A stretch of DNA of 64,000 nt from Limisphaerales bacterium (GCA_965203425.1 OZ241891.1:2031127-2095126), one strand, 5' to 3'. Shown: positions 1,613-16,926, counted from the stretch's first letter. Translations and numbers: made by a program. The notes: a model not told the origin generated them from the letters alone.

Positions 1613-4600
1613 CTAGGAATGCGAACTCTGTTTAAGAGTTTGATCTTTGGCGGGCGGGCAGTTTTTGGCGGATTGGATCTGTTTTTCGTCCTTTTCAATG
1701 AGTTGATAGATTTGGTTGAGAGTGTTCCGGGTGATGGAAACGCCGCTAAGGTCGATGTGTTGCTCAGAGGTTTCGGTTTGGGAAGTTTGGGTTTGGTCGG
1801 ATTCGTAGCGCTTGAGGATTTGGCGGAGAATGGAGAGATTTTGTTTGAGCGGGGCGATTTCGGTTTGGAGGCGGCTCAAAGAGACGTCGGAGGCGGCGGA
1901 AGCAAGGGTTTGAGGCAGTTCGTTTGCCAGAGTGTTTTGAATTTCTTTCAAGGGCGCAGAGAGAGCGGTTAAGTCCGGCAAAGGAGCAAGGGATTCGAAG
2001 CGGCCTTGCAGGGTTTGCTGAATTCTTTGAAGGGCTTCGGCGAAAATGGCAAGCTGGGAAACGATGCGGCCAACGGGATCTGCGGGATCTGCTTGCCCCA
2101 TGATTTGATTCCGGCGGAAGACTTTTTTGATTTCTTCCCAGCGAATTTGGTCGATGTCCGAGAGCCATCCGTTGATTTCTCGAAATTTCAGCAGGTTCGA
2201 TTCCGCGCCGGAAGTAAGCGTTTGGGATTCGCTTTGATAATGATCGATCACCAGTTCTTGCACTTCTTGGTCGTTCATGATGGGCAAGATTTTTTCTGCC
2301 AAGCGGTTCATGTTTCGGTAGGAGCCTTGGAGTTTGAAAGGGGGTTCGGTTCGATAGGCGTCTTGTTGGCTGGCAGAGCGGATGTATTCCTGATTGACGG
2401 CGAGGACGACGTTGCGGACGCGAACGAGTTTGGAAAACACGTTGAGTATTTCGTTGATGGTTTCGACAGAATAGTTTCCCTCAAATTCAGCGCCGTCGCG
2501 CTCTCCGGTTTCAGCGATGCGGATGAAGGTGTGGAGGTCATGCCGGCTTTGGTTGCGCAAGGGGGAGAGAACGGGGTTGGAGGTAAGGGCGTTTTCTAGA
2601 TAGGAAGTTTCGAAGGCGTCTTCGTGATCGCCGATAACGTCGCCAAGGTTGTAAGTGTCGGCTCGGTTGGCCAGCATGTCGGGAACTTTGAACTTTTCTC
2701 CGCTTTCCGTGTAGGGGTTTCCAGCCATAACAACGGCGACTTTGCGTCCGCGCAAGTCGTAGGTTCGGGGTTGGTTGTTCCACACGCCTTCGATGCGCCG
2801 CTGACCGTCGCAGAGGGAGATGAACTTTTGAAGGAATTCCGGATGACAGTGCTGGATGTCGTCGAGGTATATCATCACATTGTCGCCTATCTCAAAGGAG
2901 AAGTTGAGTCGTTGAACTTCGGCGCGAGCGGCGGCATTGATGGCTTCGGCGGGGTCCAAGGAGGTGACCTGATGGCCTAAGGCGGGTCCGTTGATTTTGA
3001 CGAAGGTAATGCCCAGTCGGTGGGCGACGTATTCCATTAATGTAGTTTTGCCGTAGCCAGGCGGGCTAACGAGGAGGAGCAAGCCCATGAGGTCAGTTCG
3101 CTTGCCCGCTCCGGCGCTACCGATTTGCTTGGCCAGATTGTCGCCGATCAAAGGCAGAAACACTTGATCGATCAACCGGTTCCGAACGAAGGAAGTAAGG
3201 ACTCTCGGTTGAAATTCTTCCAGACGCATCGCCTGACGAGCGCTCTGGAGCAAGACTTGTTTCCGTTGCTGATACTGCCGATAAACGGCCGCCTCTTCCG
3301 CATCAAACCGACGCAAGCGCTCTGTAAATTCCAGAAAATCCAAAGTATATCGTCCGTCTTGAATTCGGGGATGCGCTCCGCGAAGTTCTTCGAGAAGAAC
3401 AACGGCGCTTTCGGAGCATACTGGCCGGAGATCTTTCGAAGCGGCGAACTGCACTATAGCTGCTTCATCAATGAATCGATGCTGTTCCGGCCGGCTGGCG
3501 TGCCTCACAAAGCCTCGCACCCAGTCTCGCACTAATTGAAATTCGCGCGCCGGTTCCGGCCTCACCGCCTCGCGAGCGGCGCGGTAATCGTCCCGCAAAC
3601 GGAGGCCTTCCAAGTGTTTCTCAAAGTTCCGGTGAATCTCCTTCGCTTCCCGGCTCACAATAAACGCCTCCTTCGAACAAAGTTGATGAAAGAGATAGAG
3701 CGCCGCTTCGGGAAACCGTTCAGCGGAAAATAAGGGACTCTTTCGATAAAAATCTTCGATCCCCGCCAGCAATGCCTTCACGTATTCCGCTTGCGTTTCT
3801 TCCCCCGGAAAGGCTTGGTTTTTCTCGCCAAAACTGCGAAGTTGCGCTTCCCAAAGGCTTCGTTGCTCTTGGTTCTCCAGCAGTTTCCAGTAAAGGCGAG
3901 CGCAAGCGCGGGCCGTTGGTTGAAAACGCGCCAAGCCAAGACTCCGCCAACAGCCGGCCAACGCGGTCAAGATTCGTTCGCCGTCCGCGTCGTGAACGCC
4001 CTTTTGATACGCCTCCGCATAACGCGGTTCCATGAATGCTTGAACTTGGCTCAAACGTTCGTCCGCCGGCGCTTGAAGATAGTCTTCCACAGAACCGCCT
4101 TCCACAAGACGCAAAAGCATTTGATGCGCCAAATACTCCGCCCGATAAACCGCCTTGTTCTCAGCCAAGCTCTCTTGCTCCCAGACCTCTTTGGTTTTCA
4201 AAAAATCGGGATCCTCCACCGGTTGAAAAAATCGAGTCCCCGTCAAGTGCAAATGCATGCGCCCCTCGCGGTGAATCATCGTCAAGTCCAAAGGCTGAAC
4301 GTTGACCGTAAACTCGTGTTCGCCGAATCGAATCCGATTTTGCCCCTCTACAAACAGCTCGTTTTTGTCGCGCAACTGGCGGACCGCGTCCTCTTGCGCC
4401 GTTTTCAAACGAACCGTTAATTCCTCCGCCTTGACGGAGTCTTCCAACTCGTGGAGTTGTCGAATGAGATCGCGGATCTTCTCGACCATGACGTCGGAGG
4501 CCATGTAGCCGTTGATATCATCCAAGCCGGCCATCCCGGCTAAGCGATTTTGAATTACGTTCAGAATCCGCTCGGCAGACGCCAACAACGCATTGGCCTT

Positions 4601-6901
4601 CTTGTTCCGCGCTTCAACCAGTTGAAGTTTCTTCGATTCAAAGGCTTCGTAAACTTCCGCGCGTTTGTCCGACAGCTGCGTCGTAAACTCGGGAAAATCC
4701 GAGTATTTTCCCTCCAGCTCTTCAATCTGCACGATCAATTTGTTCAAATACTCGTCGCACAAGTTCGGCGTGTTGCAAACGTCCAGATAGTGGAGCCCCG
4801 ACTGCGACAAGAGTTTTAGTTGCGCGTTAAACTGGGACGCGCCTTCAGCCGAAACCAAGCGACTCAATCGATTCTTAAGCGCCGTTTTGGCTTGGTTCAG
4901 CGTCGAATAAATCCGAGTAATCCGCTCAATAATCCGCGTGGATTCAGTGGCGTCCTCAATTTTAAGGTTGCTGACGATATCGATGAGCATTTCCAATTCT
5001 TCGCCCGATTGCTCCACCGCTTCCTGAAGTCGCCTTCCTTCAGAGGTTTTTCTCAATTTTTCCGTCTGCGCCAGCTGCGACTCGATTCGGCTTTGATAAG
5101 GCGCTAACGATTCAGGCCGCATTAGAAAGTCCACACAATGTTGCGACAGAACTTCGGTCTGGGAGGCCACCCGCCCTTCCAATACTTGAATCGCCGGCAA
5201 GTCCGCATAACGCAATTCCTTCAACGACAAGATTTCCCCGCGGGCTTTTCGCAGAGCGCTCAAGCGGCTCACAAACTCGTCGACGCCGGTCGGATCCCTT
5301 TGGGCAATTTTGCGAAGCAACGCCTCTGTTCCATCGCTGACTCGGGCAAACGAGGCTTCGGTTTCCTTCCGAATGCGGCGGACTTTTTCAAACTCGTCAA
5401 TAGCCCGGCTGGCCGTTTCTCGAATATGCTCCAAAGACTCGCGAAGATGAAACGCCTCCGCCTTGTCCACCCAAAAGTAAGTGTCCGCAATATCGCCCGT
5501 CGACCGCACAATATCCACATACAACTCCGCGTAAACCTCCTCTTTGCGAATCCAATTCAAAATATTGCGGCATTCCGCCATGCAACGAACCACGTCCCTA
5601 TTGCCAATCTTATATAAAAAGGATTCTTGATCCGCTTGTTTCTCATACTCGGCCGCGACATAAGGAGTCTGCCAAATTTGAATGGTATGATGTTTCTGCG
5701 CTTCCTCTTCACACTTGAAATAGGCAATCTCTCCATTCTGAAACAGGGAAAAGCCATTGCAAAGGATCGGATTTTCTACAGTTTGAGTAATCAAATTATA
5801 GGACATCAGCACGTAGTCTCCCAACATCCGATTGTAAAAAACATATAAGTAGTCCTCCCCATTGTTGGAAGCCACCAATCGCTCAAACAGCATTTCCGTT
5901 TTGTTGGTATCAAATCGCTTCAGCGCGCCGGTTTGCAAATAGTAGCCGTCGGAAAAAATAATGCCTTGATCTTCGGGAAGCCGCACGCAGGAATGTTCCA
6001 GAGCGTCGATCTTTTCCAATGTCTTTAGCTTGTCGTTAAATACAAAGTACCGAAAGCGCTTTTCTTGAAAGGGCCGAACTTTTAGCAGAATCAAATTGCC
6101 TATATTTGCGTAAAAAATCTCCGCATCGTCCAATGTTTGATCCTCATGCTCAACCGGCTCGGAGTATATGCCCTTGCCGCTTTCGGTGTTGTCTTCCACT
6201 TTGGCGATAAACCGCCCACCTGTGCAGGACACAAAAAGGCGGTCTCCTATGGAAATATGAGGATGGGCGCCGTCTCGGTGAAAATCTCGGTGCGTGCGCC
6301 TCCAGTCACATTCATACTGTTTGGGAAAGGAAAATTCATGATCGCTACGGTTGCCAATATAAGTTAAATCGTCGTCTTTAGCAAGCCACTTGAAGGTCTT
6401 TATATCCGACACTTGCTTCCCTACACGGAATACCATGAATAAAAAAGGACCTATAAAAGAGAATTTTACAAACTTCGTATTCTTGTAATACTTATAGAGA
6501 CTTTTAAAGTCGGCTTCAAACTGCCCCGTTTTCAATAAGTCTGCCGCCGACGCATGAAACCCCCCATCGCGGTATTCGTAGACCGCAAACACGTCCGACA
6601 GCCGGATTTCCGATTTGAGGCCGAAATGAACGTTGTAGCCGAACAGGAAGTGATTTTTCCCCACCGGCACCATATCGCGGGGCACGCAGTTATGTTCCGT
6701 CGTGATGCGCTCGGCTCGGAGTAGCGACAGAGGAATGGAACCGAACACGTTGCGTCGCAAGTCATTCAACTTGGCCAAGCGTTTGGATAATTCCTCGCCT
6801 TGGGCTTTCAAGCGGGCGCGGATGATTTCATAACTGCCGCCCTCCAGCGCAATGTTGTCCAGGGTGGCGACCGCTTCAGGGGAAGTGTCCGAATCCGACA
6901 T
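1613..6901 (-). CDS. 1762-aa protein with a single AAA+ (MoxR/dynein-like) ATPase module; function unknown
   Basis: Uninterrupted 5.3-kb ORF. Walker A is LLLVSPPGYGKTTL (GYGKT at nt 3044-3058, aa 1282-1286). Walker B is VMIYLDDIQH (DD at nt 2858-2863). These are followed by VVMAGNPYTESGEKFKVPDMLANRADTYNL. There is a long helical E/L/R/K/Q-rich middle and an unassigned ~430-aa N-terminal region. The start lies 26 nt downstream of the flotillin stop. Confidence 0.8.
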   Translation of the reverse strand: MSDSDTSPEAVATLDNIALEGGSYEIIRARLKAQGEELSKRLAKLNDLRRNVFGSIPLSLLRAERITTEHNCVPRDMVPVGKNHFLFGYNVHFGLKSEIRLSDVFAVYEYRDGGFHASAADLLKTGQFEADFKSLYKYYKNTKFVKFSFIGPFLFMVFRVGKQVSDIKTFKWLAKDDDLTYIGNRSDHEFSFPKQYECDWRRTHRDFHRDGAHPHISIGDRLFVSCTGGRFIAKVEDNTESGKGIYSEPVEHEDQTLDDAEIFYANIGNLILLKVRPFQEKRFRYFVFNDKLKTLEKIDALEHSCVRLPEDQGIIFSDGYYLQTGALKRFDTNKTEMLFERLVASNNGEDYLYVFYNRMLGDYVLMSYNLITQTVENPILCNGFSLFQNGEIAYFKCEEEAQKHHTIQIWQTPYVAAEYEKQADQESFLYKIGNRDVVRCMAECRNILNWIRKEEVYAELYVDIVRSTGDIADTYFWVDKAEAFHLRESLEHIRETASRAIDEFEKVRRIRKETEASFARVSDGTEALLRKIAQRDPTGVDEFVSRLSALRKARGEILSLKELRYADLPAIQVLEGRVASQTEVLSQHCVDFLMRPESLAPYQSRIESQLAQTEKLRKTSEGRRLQEAVEQSGEELEMLIDIVSNLKIEDATESTRIIERITRIYSTLNQAKTALKNRLSRLVSAEGASQFNAQLKLLSQSGLHYLDVCNTPNLCDEYLNKLIVQIEELEGKYSDFPEFTTQLSDKRAEVYEAFESKKLQLVEARNKKANALLASAERILNVIQNRLAGMAGLDDINGYMASDVMVEKIRDLIRQLHELEDSVKAEELTVRLKTAQEDAVRQLRDKNELFVEGQNRIRFGEHEFTVNVQPLDLTMIHREGRMHLHLTGTRFFQPVEDPDFLKTKEVWEQESLAENKAVYRAEYLAHQMLLRLVEGGSVEDYLQAPADERLSQVQAFMEPRYAEAYQKGVHDADGERILTALAGCWRSLGLARFQPTARACARLYWKLLENQEQRSLWEAQLRSFGEKNQAFPGEETQAEYVKALLAGIEDFYRKSPLFSAERFPEAALYLFHQLCSKEAFIVSREAKEIHRNFEKHLEGLRLRDDYRAAREAVRPEPAREFQLVRDWVRGFVRHASRPEQHRFIDEAAIVQFAASKDLRPVCSESAVVLLEELRGAHPRIQDGRYTLDFLEFTERLRRFDAEEAAVYRQYQQRKQVLLQSARQAMRLEEFQPRVLTSFVRNRLIDQVFLPLIGDNLAKQIGSAGAGKRTDLMGLLLLVSPPGYGKTTLMEYVAHRLGITFVKINGPALGHQVTSLDPAEAINAAARAEVQRLNFSFEIGDNVMIYLDDIQHCHPEFLQKFISLCDGQRRIEGVWNNQPRTYDLRGRKVAVVMAGNPYTESGEKFKVPDMLANRADTYNLGDVIGDHEDAFETSYLENALTSNPVLSPLRNQSRHDLHTFIRIAETGERDGAEFEGNYSVETINEILNVFSKLVRVRNVVLAVNQEYIRSASQQDAYRTEPPFKLQGSYRNMNRLAEKILPIMNDQEVQELVIDHYQSESQTLTSGAESNLLKFREINGWLSDIDQIRWEEIKKVFRRNQIMGQADPADPVGRIVSQLAIFAEALQRIQQTLQGRFESLAPLPDLTALSAPLKEIQNTLANELPQTLASAASDVSLSRLQTEIAPLKQNLSILRQILKRYESDQTQTSQTETSEQHIDLSGVSITRNTLNQIYQLIEKDEKQIQSAKNCPPAKDQTLKQSSHS

Positions 6902-6927
6902 AACGAATTTTCTTCAGAACCTTGAAA

Positions 6928-9018
6928 TCAGGCTTTTGTTTTCGCTGAATGTTCTCCCAAAACTTCGGCGCCGGTTTTTTCCGCCAAGCCCTTGTCGTTG
7001 GCCAACTGAAGTGCCCGTTGCATGGCGGACTTCGCCGTCCCGTCTGTTGTTTCCGCGATCATGCGCAACAGAAGCGCGGAAAGAGAGGTGTTCTTGAGGT
7101 CTTTGCTCGTCAAGCCGAATTGCTTTACCCAAGCCTGAAATTGGGATTGGAAGTATTCGGGGTCCCCGTTGAAAAATGTTTCTTTGACGTCGCTCAGCAC
7201 GCGGCTGTTTCTTACCGCGCGGTCGACGGCTTTGCCCTGCGTAATGGAGGAAACAATTTTGTCGAAGAAAGCTCCTTCGCCGCCTACAATGTCGATTCGC
7301 GCGCTCTTCAAGGCTTCGCCCACAATCTTTGCTTGTTCTTCGGCGATGCCCTTTTGCACGCGGATTGCGGCCATCTCAATTTCCTTGTCTTTATTCAACC
7401 GCAGTTTGAATTCTTCATGCTCGCGACCCACTCCGTCGAACAATTTCATGGCGTCCGCTTTTTCCGTAATGCCCTTTGCTTCGGCGCTGAATTTGAGTTG
7501 CATTACGTTGGCTTCGGCCTCACCTTGTTGCCGAACTGCCTCAGCGCGCGCCTGAGTGACGGACACTTCCGCCATTCCAACGGCGGCCTCATCCGCCGTC
7601 TTGGCTTCGGCGCGAAGTTTCACAGCCTTGGATTCTTTTTCGGCGGTTTTCTCTTCCGCTTCCGCCAGAACTAAAAGTTCTCCCGCCTTCAAATCGCTGG
7701 CTTCCCGATTCGCCTGTGCGGCCGTCAATTGTTGATACTTTTCTTCTTCCGCTTTGAGTTCGGCGGCTTTTTTGGCCGCTTCAGCCGCTTTGATGTCCCG
7801 CACCAGCGCCTCTTCGGCCGTCATCTCGGCGCGGGTGACTACCACTTTCTTTTCTCTATCGGCGGCGGCAAAAGCTTCTACGTCTTTGATTTTCTCCTGT
7901 TCGGCCACCACGGTTTTCTCCAACTCGACGCGTTCGCGGATGACTTCTTGAATGTTTTTCTTTTCAGTTTCGACTGTTTTCTCCTTCTCGATCTGCGCCA
8001 GCGTCACAATCCGTTCCCGCTCGGTGGCTTCCAGCAAGCGGTCTTTTTCCAGCCGCTCGGTTTCGATGGCGTTGGTGCGTTCTTTGTTTTTTTGCGCGAC
8101 GATGATTTGGCGGTTTTTGTTTTCTTCTGAAATCCCGATTTCCTGATCCGAGGCGATGCGGGCTTGCTCCGCCTTCAATCGCTCTTCTTCGCCGACTTTT
8201 TTGGCTTCGGCTTCCTCTCGTGCTTTGATGTTGGCGACTTCGCGTTTCTGCCGCTCTTCGGTTTCCGCCAGTTGTCTCTGCATCTCTAATATGGCCTCGC
8301 GAGCCTCGACGTTTTCCTTGGTAATGGTCTTTTCTTTGTTCTGTTGAATTTCGTTGGCCAGAATCTTCTGATCGGCGGTTAGCTTGGTAATCTTCTTGAT
8401 GCCTTCAGCATCGAGAATGTTGTTTTCATCCAGCTTGGTCAGAGGCGTCTGCTCCAAATAGTCAATGGCCGCATCATCCAACACAAATCCGTTCAAATCC
8501 GTGCCGACCACTTTGAGAATTTCCTCCTTGAATCGCTCTCGTTCGCTATACAAGTCGGTGAAGTCGAACTGTTTGCCGGCGGTTTTTAACGCCTCGGAGA
8601 ACTTGGCGTCAAAAAGCTCCACCAAAGCTTGCTGATCCGAAGCCCGCAAACAGCCAATGGACTGCGCCACCCGCAACACGTCCTCCGCCGTCTTGTTCAC
8701 CCGCACAAAGAAGGCCACCTTAATATCGGCGCGGATGTTGTCCATGCACACTAGGCCGTCTTCGCCGTGCCGATAGATTTCAATTCGTTTGACAGAAATA
8801 TCCATCTCTTCAAATCGATGGATCACCGGCACGACGACAATCCCGCTAAACGAAACCTTAGTGCCGCCGATGCCGTTGCGCACAATGGCTTTGCCCTGCT
8901 CAATCTTCCGATAGCATTTGACTACCAAAAGCGCCACGCCAATAAAAATAACCACCAGCGCAATCACCGCCGTAGCCCCCACCATCTGGGGAAATCCTTG
9001 TCCCAACAATGCTTCCAT
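6928..9018 (-). CDS. flotillin-family (SPFH/band-7) membrane protein, YqiK-like
   Basis: N-terminal TM segment VGATAVIALVVIFIGVALLVV. SPFH-like block KAIVRNGIGGTKVSFSGIVVVPVIHRFEEMDISVKRIEIYRHGEDGLVCMDNIRADIKVAFFVRVN. This is followed by ~400 aa of E/A/K-rich coiled coil. Confidence 0.85.
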   Translation of the reverse strand: MEALLGQGFPQMVGATAVIALVVIFIGVALLVVKCYRKIEQGKAIVRNGIGGTKVSFSGIVVVPVIHRFEEMDISVKRIEIYRHGEDGLVCMDNIRADIKVAFFVRVNKTAEDVLRVAQSIGCLRASDQQALVELFDAKFSEALKTAGKQFDFTDLYSERERFKEEILKVVGTDLNGFVLDDAAIDYLEQTPLTKLDENNILDAEGIKKITKLTADQKILANEIQQNKEKTITKENVEAREAILEMQRQLAETEERQKREVANIKAREEAEAKKVGEEERLKAEQARIASDQEIGISEENKNRQIIVAQKNKERTNAIETERLEKDRLLEATERERIVTLAQIEKEKTVETEKKNIQEVIRERVELEKTVVAEQEKIKDVEAFAAADREKKVVVTRAEMTAEEALVRDIKAAEAAKKAAELKAEEEKYQQLTAAQANREASDLKAGELLVLAEAEEKTAEKESKAVKLRAEAKTADEAAVGMAEVSVTQARAEAVRQQGEAEANVMQLKFSAEAKGITEKADAMKLFDGVGREHEEFKLRLNKDKEIEMAAIRVQKGIAEEQAKIVGEALKSARIDIVGGEGAFFDKIVSSITQGKAVDRAVRNSRVLSDVKETFFNGDPEYFQSQFQAWVKQFGLTSKDLKNTSLSALLLRMIAETTDGTAKSAMQRALQLANDKGLAEKTGAEVLGEHSAKTKA

Positions 9019-9019
9019 A

Positions 9020-9646
9020 TCAGTCTTCCAATTTTTTAATAAAGTATAAGTTCTTCTCCGTATCCTCCGAGTAAATTACCGCGCAATCGCCTTTGCGCAA
9101 AGCTTTCGCCTCATCCGCCGTCCGCACATTAATCTTGATCGGCATTCCCGTTTGCTCTATCTCCGCCTGCCCAGATTGAGCGTCCGCCCGCGAAGTAACG
9201 ACGCGGCATATCTTCCCCAGCAAAGGAACTTCTGCCGGCTCCTCACTACAACGAAATCGCCGAATCAAACAATGCGCCGGCAACACAATCGCTTTGGTCG
9301 CCACTACGCTCACCACAAAATTAGGAATGGCCAGCAATCCCGCCAACCACCACGCGTGGCCCGGATTAAAGTAATAATTCAACAGCATGGCTGACACCCA
9401 CATAAAAACAATCAGCAAACTCACTATCGCCATAAACGGCCCTTCGTCCGCATGAAAAAAACGCGCGGCCACATGCCCCCATCGCCCCCCGCCTTCGCCC
9501 TCCGCGTCAAAATCCAAGTCAAAATCGACCGCATCCACGTCCAACGCCCCGATAATCACCAAAAGCCAATACAGAAACACAAACCCAAACAGCACCGTGA
9601 AGGGCAAATTCACCAACTCAAACGCTTCAGCAATTAATTCCTGCAT
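9020..9646 (-). CDS. NfeD/YqiJ-like (DUF1449-type) inner-membrane protein with C-terminal OB-like domain
   Basis: Start moved to ATG 9646 (MQELIAEAFELVNLPFTVLFGFVFLYWLLVIIGAL); the track ORF begins at 9706. About three hydrophobic helices and an acidic loop DVDAVDFDLDFDAEGEGGG. C-terminal OB-like region GKICRVVTSRADAQSGQAEIEQTGMPIKINVRTADEAKALRKGDCAVIY. The stop lies 1 nt before the flotillin start. Confidence 0.7.
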   Translation of the reverse strand: MQELIAEAFELVNLPFTVLFGFVFLYWLLVIIGALDVDAVDFDLDFDAEGEGGGRWGHVAARFFHADEGPFMAIVSLLIVFMWVSAMLLNYYFNPGHAWWLAGLLAIPNFVVSVVATKAIVLPAHCLIRRFRCSEEPAEVPLLGKICRVVTSRADAQSGQAEIEQTGMPIKINVRTADEAKALRKGDCAVIYSEDTEKNLYFIKKLED

Positions 9647-9928
9647 AACATCCTCCCCGCAAATAAAATGCAAAATGATCCGAGCCAACAAACGCGGCCA
9701 TTGCATCCATAATCAAAAAACATCCGCAACTTGCAAGATTAAACATTGCCTCCCCTCAAAAGCAAATAATTCCCTTACAATCCACTCGTCCGGCTGTAAG
9801 ATCCGCCTTTGCCGAATTCTTGTTGCCGAGCGACCAAAGAATCGAATTCTCTCTTCACCCGCCAATCGTCAAAGAAATCAAGATGGCAACAGCACCCAAT
9901 CTTCTCTCCGCCCCACAAAACCTAAAAG

Positions 9929-11686
9929 CTACTTCACCACAATCCATTCTTCCCCCAGCATATCAACGATTTTCACCGCTACTTTGGCCCCAACGCGAGG
10001 CAGATTGAGCTCATAGCGCCCTCTAATAAAATCGGTCTTCCTCCCCGGCAAATCACTCTCCACAATCCGAAAACACTCCCCATCATAATCGGTGTCCATC
10101 AGCACGCAGTCTATCTGCGCCCGATAATCCCCAACCTGCTCCTCAAACAACGTCCGATCTACCTCCAACCGCGCCAAAATAGTCGGACTAATATAATCCA
10201 CAATCTCCACCAGCGCCTTCTTCCCTTTCTTGCGAATCCGAACATCCGCCTCCGCCGGCCGCTCCGCAATCACTCCGTCCTCTTGTATGTCGCAAATGCG
10301 AATGCGATTGATCGGACTCTTCTCTTGGGCCATCTCCGCAACAATCCCCATCTCCGCGCCGTTGCAAAACACAACAATGTCTCGTATTTCCTCCGGCCGG
10401 TTCTGCGCAATCTCATCTTTGATAATCTGAATGTCCAGCCGGTTCAAAGGCCGGTTCATATCTATAATTTTAGCTAACTTGCCATCCACGACGCCGTCAA
10501 AAAACAAGTCTCCGTTGTCTTTTTGGATGCCGTATTTAGAAATGATGATCTTTTTGAATCCGTTTTGTTTGGTAAAGTCGTAGTTATTGACTCGATAGTG
10601 GATTAGGCCGCGGCCGTTTTGCTTGGCGAGGTCGCCGTTTTTGGAGCGGATGACCTTTTGGATTCGTTTGATAGTAGTTTGGATGGCGCCCTTGTTCAAA
10701 TCGGCAACAATCCAGCGTCTTCCCAGACTCTCGGCAACCGCGGCGGTTGTGCCGCTGCCGCAAAAGCAGTCTAACACAATAGACCCTTCGTTACTCGACG
10801 CCTTGATAATGCGCTCCAACAACGCCTCCGGCTTCTGAGTAGGAAAGTCAAGTCGCTCATGCCCAATATTCAACATTGGGATACGCCAAACACTCGTTAC
10901 TAACTTATCCGTCGTTGTCTTGTACAGTATTTTGCCCTTCTTATCACGCACCACATCTGCCTCTTTGGTCTTAGGGTTAAATACCCGTACCGGTTGTCGC
11001 CGAGGTTTTTCATCGTCAAATGCTTCACGTTGCTCATGCCAGATATAATTACTGCTCTTGGCATAATGCAGAATTAAATCATGCACTTGATGATACTTGC
11101 TTGACTTTGCTTTCAGCCCGGAATTCGGATAGTGCCAAATAACTTCATTTCTAAAACCATCTATTCCAAACACCTCATCCAACAAAAAACGCAAGTGATG
11201 GCTTTTATGCCAATCACAATGCAAGTAAAGACTCCCTTGCTGACTTAACAACTCCCTCAACAATATCAACCGCTCATACATAAACTGCAAATAGTTGTCG
11301 TTCGCCCAAATATCCTCATACTGCGCGCTCTCAATGGCAGTATGCCCCGCCGCCTTCCATTTGGCCGACTGCCCCCGCAACTGCACTTGGCGAACATAGT
11401 CCGCGGCAGAATCAAAGGGCGGATCCCCATAAATCAAATCCACTTTGCCCCGAAACCCGGCAATCAAAAGACAAGACAAGATTTCTTTGTTATCGCCGTG
11501 AAACAATAGATTGTGGCCGCTCTTCACAAACGCATCATAAGACGGCTCAGCGGGCGGCTTTTCCACACCCACAGTCTCGCGCAACTGCGCCGGGAAATGC
11601 TTCACTTTGTCCAAAGGCTTCTTCCCCACCCAATGCAGCATCGGCCGCCCTTTCACCGCAGTAATTCTAACCGTTTTCTTCTTCAT
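9929..11686 (-). CDS. mod: site-specific DNA methyltransferase, beta-class N6A/N4C, Type III Mod-like
   Basis: Motif IV is IYGDPPFDS and motif I is VLDCFCGSGTTAAVAESLGRRWIVADL, in IV->I order. There is a ~250-aa extra C-terminal region. ATG 11684-11686 overlaps the res stop (ATGA); the track ORF starts at 11701. Confidence 0.85.
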   Translation of the reverse strand: MKKKTVRITAVKGRPMLHWVGKKPLDKVKHFPAQLRETVGVEKPPAEPSYDAFVKSGHNLLFHGDNKEILSCLLIAGFRGKVDLIYGDPPFDSAADYVRQVQLRGQSAKWKAAGHTAIESAQYEDIWANDNYLQFMYERLILLRELLSQQGSLYLHCDWHKSHHLRFLLDEVFGIDGFRNEVIWHYPNSGLKAKSSKYHQVHDLILHYAKSSNYIWHEQREAFDDEKPRRQPVRVFNPKTKEADVVRDKKGKILYKTTTDKLVTSVWRIPMLNIGHERLDFPTQKPEALLERIIKASSNEGSIVLDCFCGSGTTAAVAESLGRRWIVADLNKGAIQTTIKRIQKVIRSKNGDLAKQNGRGLIHYRVNNYDFTKQNGFKKIIISKYGIQKDNGDLFFDGVVDGKLAKIIDMNRPLNRLDIQIIKDEIAQNRPEEIRDIVVFCNGAEMGIVAEMAQEKSPINRIRICDIQEDGVIAERPAEADVRIRKKGKKALVEIVDYISPTILARLEVDRTLFEEQVGDYRAQIDCVLMDTDYDGECFRIVESDLPGRKTDFIRGRYELNLPRVGAKVAVKIVDMLGEEWIVVK

Positions 11687-14277
11687 TGTGAGTAAATCCA
11701 ATCGATGATGGGCTTGAGTTTATCCGCTTCTATGGTGCCTGTGGAAGTATAAACGACGTTGTATTTAAATTTATCGGGTTGCATTTTCTGCAAACGCTCC
11801 ACCGCTTTTTTCTTTGTTTCCACTGTTTTGTCGCCGCCCTCGCTTTCTGCTTTGACTTCCACAATATAAAACTCGCCCGTCTTTTTCACAATCACAAAGT
11901 CGGGAAAATATCGATGGTATCGCTTGTCTTCGCCCAAGTATTCGAAATGAAAGTCAGTCTTTCTGGAATCGGTCAAACCGCCCGTAAATAAGAATGCTTC
12001 TACCTCATCGGGGTTTGTGTTAAGCGCAAACAATATGTCCCGAAAGAAAGCGCATTCCGGCTTGCTGTCGAAGTTGTAAGGAGTGTAGTGAAAGCTTAAG
12101 TTATGATTGTCTTTATCTTGTTTATTGTCGATGAGCAGGCCATTCTCTTTCATTTGTTGATGCGTTCTTTCGAGCAGGCGCAAGCGGTGAACGTAAACGC
12201 CGTCTTCGTCCTTTTCAAAAACATCTTTGCCATTTTCATCTTGAAGGCGAATTAGCGCCATTGCTTCGGTAATCTTCTCTTCCACAGTCTTGTAATTCGC
12301 TTGCTGATCTTCCACCTGCTGAAACAAGCTGTATAAGTGGGTGTTTGGCATTTCCCTTTGCGGATATAGATTGTTAAGTTGCTTTAAAATCAGCATGGCC
12401 GGTAGATGGTATTTTGTGGCGATTTTATGCGAGGCGGTGTAACAACTTATTGTTTCCGTTGCGGCGGGCAGTTCTTTTATATTGCCGGTTGGCATTAGAA
12501 TTTGTGTTGGCCCGCTGAAATCCGGGGTGAGAACACTGCGCAGTATTGACGGAGCTTGTTGGGGTTTTGGTGGATTCAACGCAATTTTTTGATTTGGCGG
12601 CTCGGTTCGGACGGCTCGTTTCACCGTGCGGGTAATTTCCAGCTTGGGAAGTTGTGCTTTAACAACTCGCATGGTGACTGTTTCTTTGGGGTTCGAGGCG
12701 GCGGAGAGTCGGATGATGTCGGTTCCAAAGTTTTCTTGCAGTTCTTTGTCTAGAATCTTTGCATTGCCGCGATCCAGAAATATTTTGGCCGGACGCTGGT
12801 TTCCCTGCACTTGCCGCAGACAGCGAGTTGCCGCTTGCAGGACGTAGTTATTGCTCTTTGTTTGCTCTTTGATTAGCGCGCAGGCAAACAAGCTGGGGCA
12901 GTTCCAACCTTCCACGCCTTTACCTATCAATAAAATAATCCGCTTTTGGTGGCCGGGGTTGTTGAGTCGTTTGAACTGGTCCATTTCCTCGGCTTTGGAC
13001 TGCTGTGTATTGACTAATATTTGATCAACACTTTCGCCGATGTTTGCCATGGCTTGTTCAATCAATCGACGAGATTGGGTCAAGTGTTCTTGGGTTTTAA
13101 AATAAAAGGCCATTTTTGCCTTGGCTCCGTTGGGGAGTGAGACGTCTCCGTATTTGTTGAAAAACTCCCGAATGATGTCATTAAAAACCGTTTTCTCTGA
13201 TTGCCCTTTGATATTGTATTGGTGTATTCCGTTACAGAGTTCTTTTAGGATATTGTCTTGTATTCCGTCGCTGAGTCCGTACCAGACGACAACCTCTTTG
13301 AGATGTTCTTTTTTGTAATAAGGCGTTCCGGTTGTGTTGACCACCGCGATGATGGGAGTGTGTTCGTGAATGTAGTTGATGGTTTCGCGCACTCGCTTTA
13401 GTTTGTCAAAAGTGTTGCCGTAAGTGTGATGCGCTTCATCGGAGAAGACGCCGAGGTTGGGCAGACTGGCGATTTTTTGGAGACGACAATTGGCTTGAAG
13501 TTCCTTTTCTCGATAGTCCGTTTCTGTCTGATTGCTTCTTCTTCGGGCGCGCAGGCTAATTTTTTCGGTGTTGGAAACGATCAAGTTGTAACTGCTACGT
13601 TCTTGTGCTTGTATGTCTTTTCGGCTACCCGGATATTCAATTTTTAGATTGGCGGCGAAATCTCGGTTAATGTTGGGAGGGAGAATTTTTTCATAGGGCA
13701 GTCCGCTGATTTCGCGCAGGCTTTCAATGATGGTTGTGCCGGGCGCAAAGACTAAGGCGTTTTTCATAAAGTTGCCTTGGGAATAACGCAGGGACATGGC
13801 AAATTCTGTGGCGATGATTGTTCCAATCAGCGCAGTCTTTCCGGCGCCCATCGTCAAGGCGAGAATGTAACTTGGATAGGGCAGTATTGTGGCTTCGTGC
13901 AAGGCTTGAATTCGTCTTTCTTTGACCCAATTTAGATCGGTTTTGACCTTCTCGATGATGTAGTCTATGGATGCTAATTCTTGGGCGTCTTTTGAGATGG
14001 GAATTTTTAGAGCTTTGAAAAAGTCTTTCTTGTTCTTTGCGTAGTAATGTTTGTATAGGTTTATGACGTGGGGAGTTTGCAGTATGAGGCGGATATACCA
14101 GTATACTTCAAGGGCGAGGAGTTGTGGTTCGCGCAGAAACTTGGGGGTTGGGCTGTCTTTTTGCGTTTCCATTTGGTAGGCGAGGATTTCGCCTATCATC
14201 GGGTATTCTTCGCAAGGGTATCCGCTTTTGCGCCATTGAAGGGCGGATTGTTTCAGGGCTTCGTATAAGATGGGCAT
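11683..14277 (-). CDS. res: Type III restriction enzyme Res-like helicase-nuclease subunit
   Basis: Walker A LTMGAGKTAL, DEAH box VFSDEAHHTYG, motif VI-like QAATRCLRQ. C-terminal PD-(D/E)xK-like motif FPDFVIVKKTGEFYIVEVKAE. Confidence 0.8.
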   Translation of the reverse strand: MPILYEALKQSALQWRKSGYPCEEYPMIGEILAYQMETQKDSPTPKFLREPQLLALEVYWYIRLILQTPHVINLYKHYYAKNKKDFFKALKIPISKDAQELASIDYIIEKVKTDLNWVKERRIQALHEATILPYPSYILALTMGAGKTALIGTIIATEFAMSLRYSQGNFMKNALVFAPGTTIIESLREISGLPYEKILPPNINRDFAANLKIEYPGSRKDIQAQERSSYNLIVSNTEKISLRARRRSNQTETDYREKELQANCRLQKIASLPNLGVFSDEAHHTYGNTFDKLKRVRETINYIHEHTPIIAVVNTTGTPYYKKEHLKEVVVWYGLSDGIQDNILKELCNGIHQYNIKGQSEKTVFNDIIREFFNKYGDVSLPNGAKAKMAFYFKTQEHLTQSRRLIEQAMANIGESVDQILVNTQQSKAEEMDQFKRLNNPGHQKRIILLIGKGVEGWNCPSLFACALIKEQTKSNNYVLQAATRCLRQVQGNQRPAKIFLDRGNAKILDKELQENFGTDIIRLSAASNPKETVTMRVVKAQLPKLEITRTVKRAVRTEPPNQKIALNPPKPQQAPSILRSVLTPDFSGPTQILMPTGNIKELPAATETISCYTASHKIATKYHLPAMLILKQLNNLYPQREMPNTHLYSLFQQVEDQQANYKTVEEKITEAMALIRLQDENGKDVFEKDEDGVYVHRLRLLERTHQQMKENGLLIDNKQDKDNHNLSFHYTPYNFDSKPECAFFRDILFALNTNPDEVEAFLFTGGLTDSRKTDFHFEYLGEDKRYHRYFPDFVIVKKTGEFYIVEVKAESEGGDKTVETKKKAVERLQKMQPDKFKYNVVYTSTGTIEADKLKPIIDWIYSQ

Positions 14278-15292: not shown

Positions 15293-16252
15293 TTAGCCCA
15301 TGTTGTCTTTATTTTCAAATTGTTTTTGCGTTCGGAGGGAAGTGTTGCGGAGAATGGCGGGCGGAGGATGGGGGATCATTTGCGTTTGGTATAATTTAAA
15401 GAGGGCTTGGGTGCCGTCATTTTCGCCGCCTGAGGCCGTTAGTTTTTCGTACAATTGCTTTGCTAGTTTTAGGCCCGGCAGGTTCAGCTTCATTGTTTCT
15501 GCGGACTCGAGGGCGATTCGCATGTCTTTGAGGAAGTGTTTGATGAAGAATCCGGGGGCGAAGTCTTCTTGCAGGATTCGGGGCGCTAGGTTGGATAATG
15601 CCCAACTTCCCGCCGCTCCGCTTTCGATGCTTTTGAGGACGATGCGCGGATTGAGGCCGGACTTTTTGGCGTAGGCTAAGGCTTCGCAAATCGCCGTCAT
15701 TCCGGAAGCGATGGCTATTTGGTTGCACATTTTTGCGTGTTGGCCGGCGCCGGATCCGCCTTGCAGGGCGATGTTTTCGCCCAGAATCTCAAAGATGGGT
15801 TTGGCTTTTTCAAAAGCGGCGGCATCGCCTCCGACCATGATGGAAAGCCTTGCTTCTTGCGCGCCAATATCGCCGCCGGAAACCGGAGCGTCCAGAACGG
15901 CTACTTTTTTGGATTGGGCTTGTTGGTGAATTTGGACCGCCAAGTCGGGGCTTGAGGTGGTCATGTCAATGGCTATCGTTCCCGGTTTTGCGCGTTCCAG
16001 AATTCCATTTTCGCCAAAATAGACGGATTCCACGTCTCGCGGGAACCCGACTATTGTGATTACAAAGTCGGCTTGGGCGGCGGCGTCTCCGGCCGTGTTT
16101 TGCCAGATTGCGCCTTTATTCAAAAGGTTTTGCGCTTTTTCTTTTGTTCGGTTGTGGACGCAAAGTCGGTAGCCGGCGGCAAGCAGATGTCCCGCCATGC
16201 TCTGCCCCATTACGCCGGTGCCGATAAAACCGATTTGCGCTTTTTGATTCAT
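15293..16252 (-). CDS. NAD(P)-dependent oxidoreductase, 3-hydroxyisobutyrate/6-phosphogluconate dehydrogenase family
   Basis: Start set at ATG 16252 (MNQKAQIGFIGTGVMGQSMAGHLLAAGY, a Rossmann GxGxxG). The upstream part of track ORF 15293..16768 is Arg-rich junk overlapping the peroxiredoxin gene. Confidence 0.85.
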   Translation of the reverse strand: MNQKAQIGFIGTGVMGQSMAGHLLAAGYRLCVHNRTKEKAQNLLNKGAIWQNTAGDAAAQADFVITIVGFPRDVESVYFGENGILERAKPGTIAIDMTTSSPDLAVQIHQQAQSKKVAVLDAPVSGGDIGAQEARLSIMVGGDAAAFEKAKPIFEILGENIALQGGSGAGQHAKMCNQIAIASGMTAICEALAYAKKSGLNPRIVLKSIESGAAGSWALSNLAPRILQEDFAPGFFIKHFLKDMRIALESAETMKLNLPGLKLAKQLYEKLTASGGENDGTQALFKLYQTQMIPHPPPAILRNTSLRTQKQFENKDNMG

Positions 16253-16446
16253 AGCGGTTTGTGTTGCCGAATGGTTTGAGAGTCGAGATAAAATTAAACC
16301 GATTTTAGCTGCTGGGCAAATGTCTCCTTTCAAACGAGGAGTCCCGCTTTTCCGAGTTCGAAACGGCAACGAAGCGCAAGCCGAAACAGTGCGGTTTCGT
16401 TGCTTCCAATGAAACAATGAAAAAGTCCGTCGACGACGGCGGTTGG

Positions 16447-16926
16447 TTATTGGAGTTTTTCGAGCGTCGCTTGAATGGCGGCGAAGTTGGGAAGGTCTTT
16501 GGGCGTTGGAGTTTGTTCTGAATACTGGATGATGCCGTTTTTGTCGATGACGAAGGCCGCCCTCGCGCTCACGGCGCCGAATCCCATCAAGTCGTCCAGC
16601 AAGACTCCGTAATCTTGGGCGGTCTTTTTGTTCAGGTCGCTGGCCAGCGGGATTCCGATGTTTTCTTTTTGCGCCCAAGATTCCTGAGCGAAGGGACTGT
16701 CCACGCTGATGCCGATGACGGCCGCGTTGAGGGTTTTGTATTGTTTCAACCCGGCGGTCACGTCGCACAATTCCTTGGTGCAGACGCCGGTAAACGCCAG
16801 CGGAAAAAACAACAAAACCGTGTTCTTTTGGTCGAGGTTGTCGCTCAGCGACAGATCGATGACTTCTTCGCCGCGTTTTGATTTCAACGAAAATTGGGGG
16901 GCTCTTGTTCCTACTGCAATGGCCAT
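16447..16926 (-). CDS. peroxiredoxin (AhpC/TSA-redoxin family)
   Basis: APQFSLKS..., LLFFPLAFTGVCTKELC (peroxidatic Cys context). Size 159 aa. Confidence 0.85.
   Translation of the reverse strand: MAIAVGTRAPQFSLKSKRGEEVIDLSLSDNLDQKNTVLLFFPLAFTGVCTKELCDVTAGLKQYKTLNAAVIGISVDSPFAQESWAQKENIGIPLASDLNKKTAQDYGVLLDDLMGFGAVSARAAFVIDKNGIIQYSEQTPTPKDLPNFAAIQATLEKLQ

Follow-up and report, generated by a model that had tools for sequence, protein, structure and literature searches.

A conserved operon joining a YqiJ/flotillin-like gene pair to a giant AAA+ ATPase in a Limisphaerales genome, with a probable role in membrane-stress handling

What would a giant ATPase do when it is encoded directly behind a small membrane protein and a flotillin? 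The question is raised by a 64,000-nucleotide (nt) stretch of a Limisphaerales bacterium genome (GCA_965203425.1 OZ241891.1:2031127-2095126), here called the window, in which three open reading frames (ORFs) lie on the minus strand: gene 1 at 9020-9706 (228 amino acids [aa]), gene 2 at 6928-9018 (696 aa), and gene 3 at 1613-6901 (1762 aa). An earlier note on this DNA described them as an operon with no assigned function. On balance we consider it probable that the three genes are one conserved module, in which the ATPase would be the dedicated ATP-driven partner of a membrane scaffold in PspA-type membrane maintenance. The statement that no function had been assigned was too strong, however, since this operon type and a predicted role for it were already published by Ravi et al. 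(mSystems 2024, PMC11237479; bioRxiv 2020), and the window is a further instance of this computationally described system.

The evidence for a module comes first from linkage. The ATPase family has more than 4192 homologues and occurs in at least 597 species of the genome collection. Eighty loci were retrieved, and linkage was counted in the 58 that have at least 3 kb of DNA upstream of the ATPase gene. In 57 of these 58 loci, the same strand bears a flotillin-like gene upstream of the ATPase gene, and in 51 of the 57, a YqiJ-like gene comes before it. The YqiJ-flotillin spacer has a median of 12 nt (overlap or ≤1 nt in 16 of 53 loci), and the flotillin-ATPase spacer has a median of 122 nt. 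The retrieved loci with the triad belong to Verrucomicrobiota, Planctomycetota, Desulfobacterota, Bacteroidota, Clostridia, Omnitrophota, and Kiritimatiellota. Further phyla come from annotated records, namely, Pseudomonadota (plasmid pQBR103), Actinomycetota (Streptomyces), and Deinococcota, where the upstream genes match the YqiJ-like and flotillin-like hidden Markov models (HMMs); the triad is thus spread over at least 10 bacterial phyla. Pairwise identities of the ATPase and the flotillin-like protein co-vary (r = 0.72), as expected of co-inherited partners, a correlation that is not independent of phylogeny. The proposal that a flotillin/NfeD pair here carries its own dedicated giant AAA+ partner is well borne out by these counts. 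In Bacteroidota, small ORFs lie between the flotillin-like and ATPase genes (for instance, at 8621-9250 in L017, 9236-9985 in L033, and 7874-9774 in L080) and encode a DMP19-like protein, a DUF3784 membrane protein, and unknowns; they differ from locus to locus and were rejected as a fourth gene. At one locus (L050), the ATPase reading frame is apparently broken.

Analysis of gene 3 (1613..6901, minus strand) showed a giant soluble AAA+ ATPase. Pfam matches were found to DUF3686 (E = 8e-177), DUF7902 (E = 8e-24), AAA (E = 8e-8), and AAA_5 (E = 5e-7). DUF3686 is N-terminal (residues 37 to 476; 5474..6793), DUF7902 spans residues 598 to 679 (4865-5110), and the AAA+ module, delimited by motifs and an AlphaFold2 (AF2) model, takes up residues ∼1230 to 1560 (2222..3214), with a core at ∼1275 to 1400. 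These matches and motifs agree with the earlier description of a 1762-aa protein with a single AAA+ module. The Walker A motif GYGKTT with K1285 (nt 3047-3049), Walker B D1347-D1348, sensor-1 N1395, and R1413 do not vary among the 12 diverse homologues compared. No transmembrane segment was seen in a hydrophobic scan and no peptidase family was matched in Pfam, in keeping with the suggestion of a nonprotease ATPase; domains of DNA-binding, nuclease, or helicase type were likewise not detected. Beyond the P-loop, a profile search of the Protein Data Bank (PDB) gave no solved structure matching gene 3, and no propeller; Ravi et al. called the DUF3686 domain a beta-propeller (PMC11237479). An exhaustive search for DUF3686 returned 732 representative clusters. 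In the full-length matches listed, the domain is N-terminal and the proteins are ∼1600 to 1900 aa long, which suggests that DUF3686 occurs essentially only in a single architecture. In homologues P0026, P0032, P0045, P0048, P0057, and P0088, additional repeats of the ankyrin, TPR, or HEAT type stand N-terminal to DUF3686.

The AAA+ module itself was compared with known clades. The AF2 model of residues 841 to 1762 has a predicted local distance difference test score (pLDDT) of 79.5 and a predicted template modeling score (pTM) of 0.66, and its top Foldseek folds are CbbQ (6l1q; E = 6e-5, TMt 0.53), NorQ, and RuvB, all at E values of ∼1e-4. In the model, a predicted beta-hairpin (strands 529 to 534 and 537 to 542, model numbering) falls after Walker B and before sensor 1, and no aromatic pore-loop-1 motif was found on reading the gene 3 sequence. 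Relatives of gene 3 are named "DNA repair ATPase" or "MoxR-like ATPase" in the databases. A likeness to the MoxR family (CbbQ, NorQ, RavA) may exist, in that AAA_5 is the best Pfam subtype besides generic AAA and the motif pattern after Walker B agrees. However, the AAA_5 match (30.1 bits against a cutoff of 22) covers 126 residues only, the CbbQ and NorQ matches are at E values of ∼1e-4 with RuvB equally close, the similarity is weak (12 to 14% identity), and MoxR proteins are ∼300 aa long and lack both DUF3686 and the arm described below. A VWA partner of the MoxR type was found neither among the 25 commonest families listed for 150 neighbouring genes nor in the window operon.

Gene 2 (6928..9018, minus strand) encodes a divergent flotillin/YqiK-like SPFH scaffold protein of 696 aa. 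In a comparison with hhalign, the gene 2 family profile (A2, 18 sequences) matched Escherichia coli YqiK with a probability of 99.9% (E = 1.5e-34, 31% identity over 401 columns), and the alignment covers YqiK residues 7 to 422, that is, the membrane anchor, Band_7 (39 to 192), and much of the coiled coil. The pQBR103 orthologue matches Pfam Band_7 directly (E = 9e-11), and source annotations of other relatives read "flotillin family protein" or "YqiK." The layout consists of a membrane anchor at residues 7 to 40, where the hydrophobic segment lies, followed by the SPFH domain at ∼40 to 200, predicted helices at 205 to 366 and 381 to 525, and a conserved C-terminal region at ∼530 to 696. The helices were predicted at low confidence by AF2; they amount to ∼320 aa of predicted long E/A/K-rich helix, and the E/K/A/Q/R fraction over residues 201 to 500 is 0.5 to 0.7, as expected of the long coiled coil that had been claimed from the sequence together with the transmembrane segment and SPFH domain. 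The hydrophobic scan, hhalign, and composition support all three. The C-terminal 220 aa do not align with the YqiK C terminus (3% probability) and are well conserved within the family, with HEEFKL, IDIVGGE, FFNGDP, and FGL motifs. The Pfam Flot domain (PF15975) was matched weakly in 3 of 20 relatives (best E = 0.004) and not in the window protein. Against PDB sequences, the sole match was a coiled-coil match to QmcA (E = 0.027). Foldseek searches with a monomer model of gene 2 gave chance helical matches only, and this model was set aside as evidence.

Gene 1 encodes a YqiJ/NfeD-like small inner-membrane protein with ∼3 hydrophobic segments in a transmembrane scan and an acidic D-x-D loop, DVDAVDFDLDFDAEGE. 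Its family profile (A3) aligned by hhalign to E. coli YqiJ residues 4 to 196 (95.5% probability, E = 1.4e-8), an alignment that takes in the multi-transmembrane YqiJ_N domain and runs through YqiJ residues 139 to 196, where YqiJ_OB occupies 139 to 198. Two gene 1 homologues, P0253 (31.8 bits) and P0256 (25.9 bits), score above the Pfam YqiJ_N cutoff of 23. The C-terminal region of gene 1 thus aligns to the YqiJ OB region, yet it has no Pfam match or PDB profile match, and single-sequence and profile searches of PDB sequences with gene 1 gave no match. The three-segment topology, acidic loop, and OB-like C terminus had all been read from the sequence beforehand, and the hydrophobic segments and the loop agree with that reading, while the YqiJ alignment makes the C-terminal OB domain a putative one. 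Neither gene 1 nor gene 2 of the window had a match in Pfam (E ≤ 10), NCBIfam, or PADLOC (looser limits); because direct family matches were lacking, the NfeD and SPFH labels were recovered by profile-profile comparison alone. The true start of gene 1 is most likely Met21 (ATG at 9646-9644), giving a protein of 208 aa at 9020..9646 (minus strand; the longest ORF runs to 9706). It was placed there because a GGAGGA Shine-Dalgarno sequence lies at 9656-9651, 5 nt upstream of this ATG, and because the homologues are ∼208 aa long and their alignment begins at Met21.

The three genes are tightly packed, with spacers of 1 nt (position 9019) between genes 1 and 2 and 26 nt (6902-6927) between genes 2 and 3, exactly as the earlier note had it; gene 1 stands immediately upstream of the SPFH gene, as it does in most of the other loci. 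The upstream mod gene ends with a stop codon at 9929-9931, so with the Met21 start, the gap between mod and gene 1 is 282 nt (9647-9928), close to the ∼280 nt noted before. This intergenic region (9647..9928, minus strand) is presumed to hold the triad promoter, a presumption drawn from the gap alone. No sigma-70 consensus site was found on its minus strand, and scans for consensus promoters and terminators gave site numbers no higher than in shuffled sequence. Co-transcription of the triad is suggested by the spacing and the conserved arrangement.

A further regularity was apparent in the lengths of the two large proteins. The segment of the ATPase between the motifs IQIWQTPY (residue 407) and FGxHxFxVN (residue 859), termed the arm here, measures 452 aa (450 to 454) in 56 of 56 loci from many phyla, even though its sequence identity is only ∼50%. 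In the window, it spans residues 407 to 858 (4328..5683, minus strand), includes DUF7902, and appears helical or coiled coil from its sequence character. Such a fixed length suggests a strict geometric constraint. The flotillin coiled coil (window residues 188 to 534, nt 7417-8457) varies from 313 to 430 aa across orthologues, mostly in 11-residue steps that fall into the classes 313/324/335/346, 353/364/375/386, and 419/430. This is consistent with register-preserving (hendecad) insertions and deletions in the coiled coil. A side-by-side "ruler" pairing of the arm with the coiled coil was considered and rejected, because the length of the arm stays constant, that of the coiled coil does not, and the two are uncorrelated (Spearman −0.02).

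What, then, might such a module do? Scans of 150 immediate neighbours from ∼40 loci found four recurrent Pfam families, PspA_IM30 (11 times), CesT_Tir_1 (6), PLDc_2 (3), and DUF4178 (2); the rest were housekeeping genes. In Bacteroidota, PspA and CesT_Tir_1 genes lie directly upstream on the same strand, and the order is a divergent helix-turn-helix regulator, CesT_Tir_1, PspA/IM30 (E = 6e-41), YqiJ-like, flotillin-like, with or without small ORFs, and ATPase. A different but related context is seen on pQBR103, a megaplasmid of Pseudomonas fluorescens SBW25 (L082, 86395-103371), where the triad comes after DUF2491, DUF350, DUF1190, and glutathionylspermidine-synthase-family genes that share its strand. 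These are yjfKLMC-like genes, a type that Ravi et al. linked to PspA (yjfJ-family) operons (PMC11237479). The triad on this plasmid is followed by a gene for an MvaT/MvaU-type nucleoid protein. Because the PspA/IM30, CesT-like, yjfKLMC-like, and PLD genes are the sole recurrent neighbours, a role in envelope stress or membrane maintenance is better supported than one in phage defence, and the trio probably works in membrane-stress handling. Of the two roles that had been suggested for the locus, it is the envelope-stress role that fits these neighbours.

The same role had been predicted by comparative genomics. In section 19 of their paper, Ravi et al. described an operon consisting of a CesT/Tir-PspA dyad, a YqiJ/YuaF three-transmembrane protein, a band-7/flotillin protein, and a beta-propeller/coiled-coil/AAA+ protein, as well as an "abbreviated" form without PspA, and predicted a role in PspA-linked membrane dynamics (PMC11237479). 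The same three architectures stand in the window in the same order, codirectional and adjacent. The full operon, given in their Table S3 with the example of Dokdonia donghaensis (ANH61663.1), is reproduced by the Bacteroidota loci; it includes the CesT/Tir-PspA dyad, which is absent from the window, and the window is therefore the abbreviated form. Their account is a prediction and reports no linkage frequency, fixed-length arm, or quantised coiled coil; the fixed 452-aa arm and the quantised flotillin coiled coil appear to be new details. Searches of the literature for DUF3686, PF12458, or "DNA repair ATPase" together with flotillin found nothing. Hinderhofer et al. (2009) classified SPFH-NfeD operons and never used the word "ATPase." A study of Shewanella SO1376/SO1377 was rejected as prior work on the triad, as it deals with yqiJK, a pair of genes with a terminator behind them. 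The E. coli yqiJ-yqiK pair (yuaF-floT in Bacillus subtilis) is homologous to genes 1 and 2 and agrees with them in gene order and in its tight spacing, but E. coli has no third gene. Compared to YqiK, the window flotillin is too divergent to be matched by Pfam Band_7 or Flot; its coiled coil is longer, and its C-terminal region cannot be aligned.

The following working model draws on the gene identities, the near-obligatory linkage, the intact ATPase motifs, the absence of an anchor or protease domain in the ATPase, and the Psp-related context in other genomes. First, the YqiJ/NfeD-like and flotillin-like SPFH proteins would build an oligomeric scaffold on the inner membrane, facing the cytoplasm, in the manner of SPFH-NfeD pairs with solved structures. 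Two precedents are cited in PMC13086221: the SPFH-NfeD pair QmcA-YbbJ forms a closed cytoplasmic cage, and Staphylococcus aureus FloA-NfeD stabilises unfolded proteins without ATP. Second, the soluble giant ATPase would be the dedicated ATP-driven partner of this scaffold. Third, the ATPase ring, with six rigid arms of fixed length tipped by DUF3686, would most likely dock on the flotillin assembly, for which the family-specific flotillin C-terminal region is the candidate site. Fourth, ATP hydrolysis would power the remodelling of the scaffold, be it assembly, opening, or dismantling, or the processing of client proteins held there. Finally, the module may serve as an accessory arm of a PspA-type network for envelope stress and membrane maintenance, with the PspA gene lying at another place in the genome. 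Inferred from these features are the contact between the proteins, the place of docking, which way the remodelling runs, and what triggers the module physiologically.

A parallel for this model is ESCRT-III and Vps4, where a membrane-bound polymer is likewise matched with a cytoplasmic AAA+ protein that could recycle it, and the operonic PspA of Bacteroidota, an ESCRT-III relative, provides a link. The parallel has its limits, however: it is the flotillin, not PspA, that invariantly accompanies the ATPase, no MIT domain is present, and the fold search ranked Vps4 lower than MoxR and RuvB.

Several observations weigh against the idea of an ATP-driven scaffold partner in PspA-type membrane maintenance. 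First, the linkage is not universal. In a Desulfobacteraceae metagenome-assembled genome (MAG; L011), the 1865-aa ATPase is intact, yet neither a flotillin-like nor a YqiJ-like gene lies within 10 kb to either side of it, the only clear exception to flotillin linkage. In a Verrucomicrobial subclade (L018, L020, L024, L026, L034, L042, and L070), no YqiJ-like gene was detected by BLAST or HMM; the same loci do have, directly upstream of the ATPase, a flotillin-like gene that is longer (716 to 810 aa) and more divergent (∼36 to 44% identity). Second, the PspA linkage is confined to Bacteroidota in the loci sampled. An HMM built from 14 locus PspAs found no PspA-like ORF in the 64-kb window, and no CesT was found within it. 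Third, the coiled coil varies in length, the arm does not, and the two lengths do not correlate, so that a simple side-by-side ruler of the two is unlikely. Fourth, the AAA+ module is only generically similar to known clades (E ∼1e-4), a level at which threading and clamping cannot be told apart, and the AF2 monomer model of gene 2 is poor (pLDDT of 60, pTM of 0.22). Finally, no experimental work on any triad member was found in the literature searched.

An alternative that keeps the same partners but changes their geometry is that the flotillin/YqiJ cage encloses the AAA+ hexamer, as HflK/C does around FtsH, and controls how it reaches membrane-protein substrates. The resemblance to HflK/HflC-FtsH is that of an SPFH scaffold paired genetically and functionally with an AAA+ machine, and the gene linkage seen here is as tight as for any SPFH partner. 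Enclosure would also fit the closed cytoplasmic cages formed by SPFH-NfeD pairs (QmcA-YbbJ, as cited in PMC13086221) and the unusually long predicted flotillin helices (∼160 and ∼145 aa), which would make a tall wall. However, the ATPase has neither a transmembrane anchor nor a protease domain, and a hexamer of 196-kDa subunits with 452-aa arms would be a very large cargo. In addition, the wall differs in length among lineages, from 313 to 430 aa, and the ATPase keeps fixed dimensions, although a tight fit predicts otherwise; the uncorrelated lengths, which make side-by-side pairing unlikely, also argue weakly against snug enclosure. Compared to FtsH, gene 3 is soluble, lacks the M41 protease domain, shares no more than the AAA+ fold with it, and has three times its size. 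HflK/C faces the periplasm, and YqiK-type flotillins face the cytoplasm. The analogy with HflKC-FtsH holds, by comparison of the parts, at the level of "SPFH scaffold plus AAA+," and we regard enclosure itself as unlikely.

A second alternative moves the triad from maintenance to immunity: it would sense infection at the membrane and abort it, as part of a defence island beside a type III-like restriction-modification (R-M) pair. The triad does lie directly downstream of mod and res in the window, it is patchily distributed, has apparently been transferred horizontally, and has copies on megaplasmids, and a few loci have defence-model matches (Ssp/Dnd and MzaA) among their immediate neighbours. 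But the R-M adjacency is found only in the window and in L001, a 94% identical locus from a Limisphaerales MAG, and no phage record encodes the ATPase. The top PADLOC matches of the triad, TRIP13 (E = 0.005) and mad8 (E = 0.017), involve the P-loop only and fall outside genes 1 and 2. Defence matches among the 150 neighbours, counted without a background control, are sporadic and scattered, with no consistent partner, and several are generic, such as the three "DrmC" matches that stand alongside the three to PLDc_2; housekeeping genes make up most of the neighbours, and recurrence is confined to Psp-related ones. Conserved residence in defence islands was not seen in these loci, and the phage-defence role proposed for the locus, which found no convincing PADLOC match, is quite improbable and, like the DNA repair reading that follows, poorly supported. 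That the large protein is a RuvB-like DNA repair ATPase, with incidental membrane neighbours, is very improbable indeed: the Pfam and NCBI descriptions ("ATPase involved in DNA repair" or "DNA repair ATPase"), weak RuvB_N matches, and the presence of RuvB among the Foldseek matches speak for it, but the RuvB likeness is limited to ∼45 residues round the P-loop at E values of ∼1e-4 to 1e-3, far below family thresholds, the protein shows none of the DNA-acting domains searched for, its gene is near-obligatorily linked to those of two membrane proteins, and no paper backing the name was found in the literature searched.

The favored reading of a scaffold with its own ATP-driven partner can be taken a step further. 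It is conceivable, though doubtful at present, that the DUF3686 ATPase is the first ATP-driven remodeller of an SPFH scaffold besides FtsH. Its six rigid arms of ∼452 residues would hold the N-terminal domains at a set distance from the AAA+ ring, and these domains would grip the family-specific flotillin C-terminal cap to open, load, or dismantle the cage upon membrane damage. If this were true, bacterial flotillins would gain a defined, energy-dependent reaction cycle that could be reconstituted. The mechanism of flotillins in bacteria is unsettled, as most have a small NfeD partner alone and mild mutant phenotypes. A flotillin family coupled almost obligatorily to a large ATPase with invariant catalytic residues offers a handle for turning a "scaffold" into a defined reaction, and the module is present in tractable organisms, namely, P. 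fluorescens SBW25 (pQBR103), Proteus mirabilis, Streptomyces, Hymenobacter, and Dokdonia. The result also matters for annotation, in that the widespread database name "DNA repair ATPase" is unsupported in the evidence found. The value of the finding is limited by the fact that the operon type had already been published as a computational prediction.

The surroundings of the triad in the window can be described briefly. Upstream, mod (9929-11701) encodes an N6/N4 methyltransferase (N6_N4_Mtase) whose top PADLOC model is a type III methyltransferase (E = 1.6e-60), and res (11683-14277), which overlaps it by 19 nt, encodes a restriction subunit with a ResIII helicase. The res product has a weak C-terminal match to a TnsA-like endonuclease and matched no PADLOC restriction model, and the pair is referred to as type III-like R-M. 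Directly downstream of the ATPase gene, on the minus strand, are two ORFs at 1002-1511 (169 aa) and 197-973 (258 aa); they have no family matches and their relatives occur only in the near-identical L001, and they were rejected as members of the system. Farther upstream, a minus-strand ORF of 491 aa with a GTG start (15293-16768) either carries an N-terminal extension of unknown nature or was called too long, as its 3-hydroxyisobutyrate/tartronate-semialdehyde-reductase-like domains begin only at residue ∼175.

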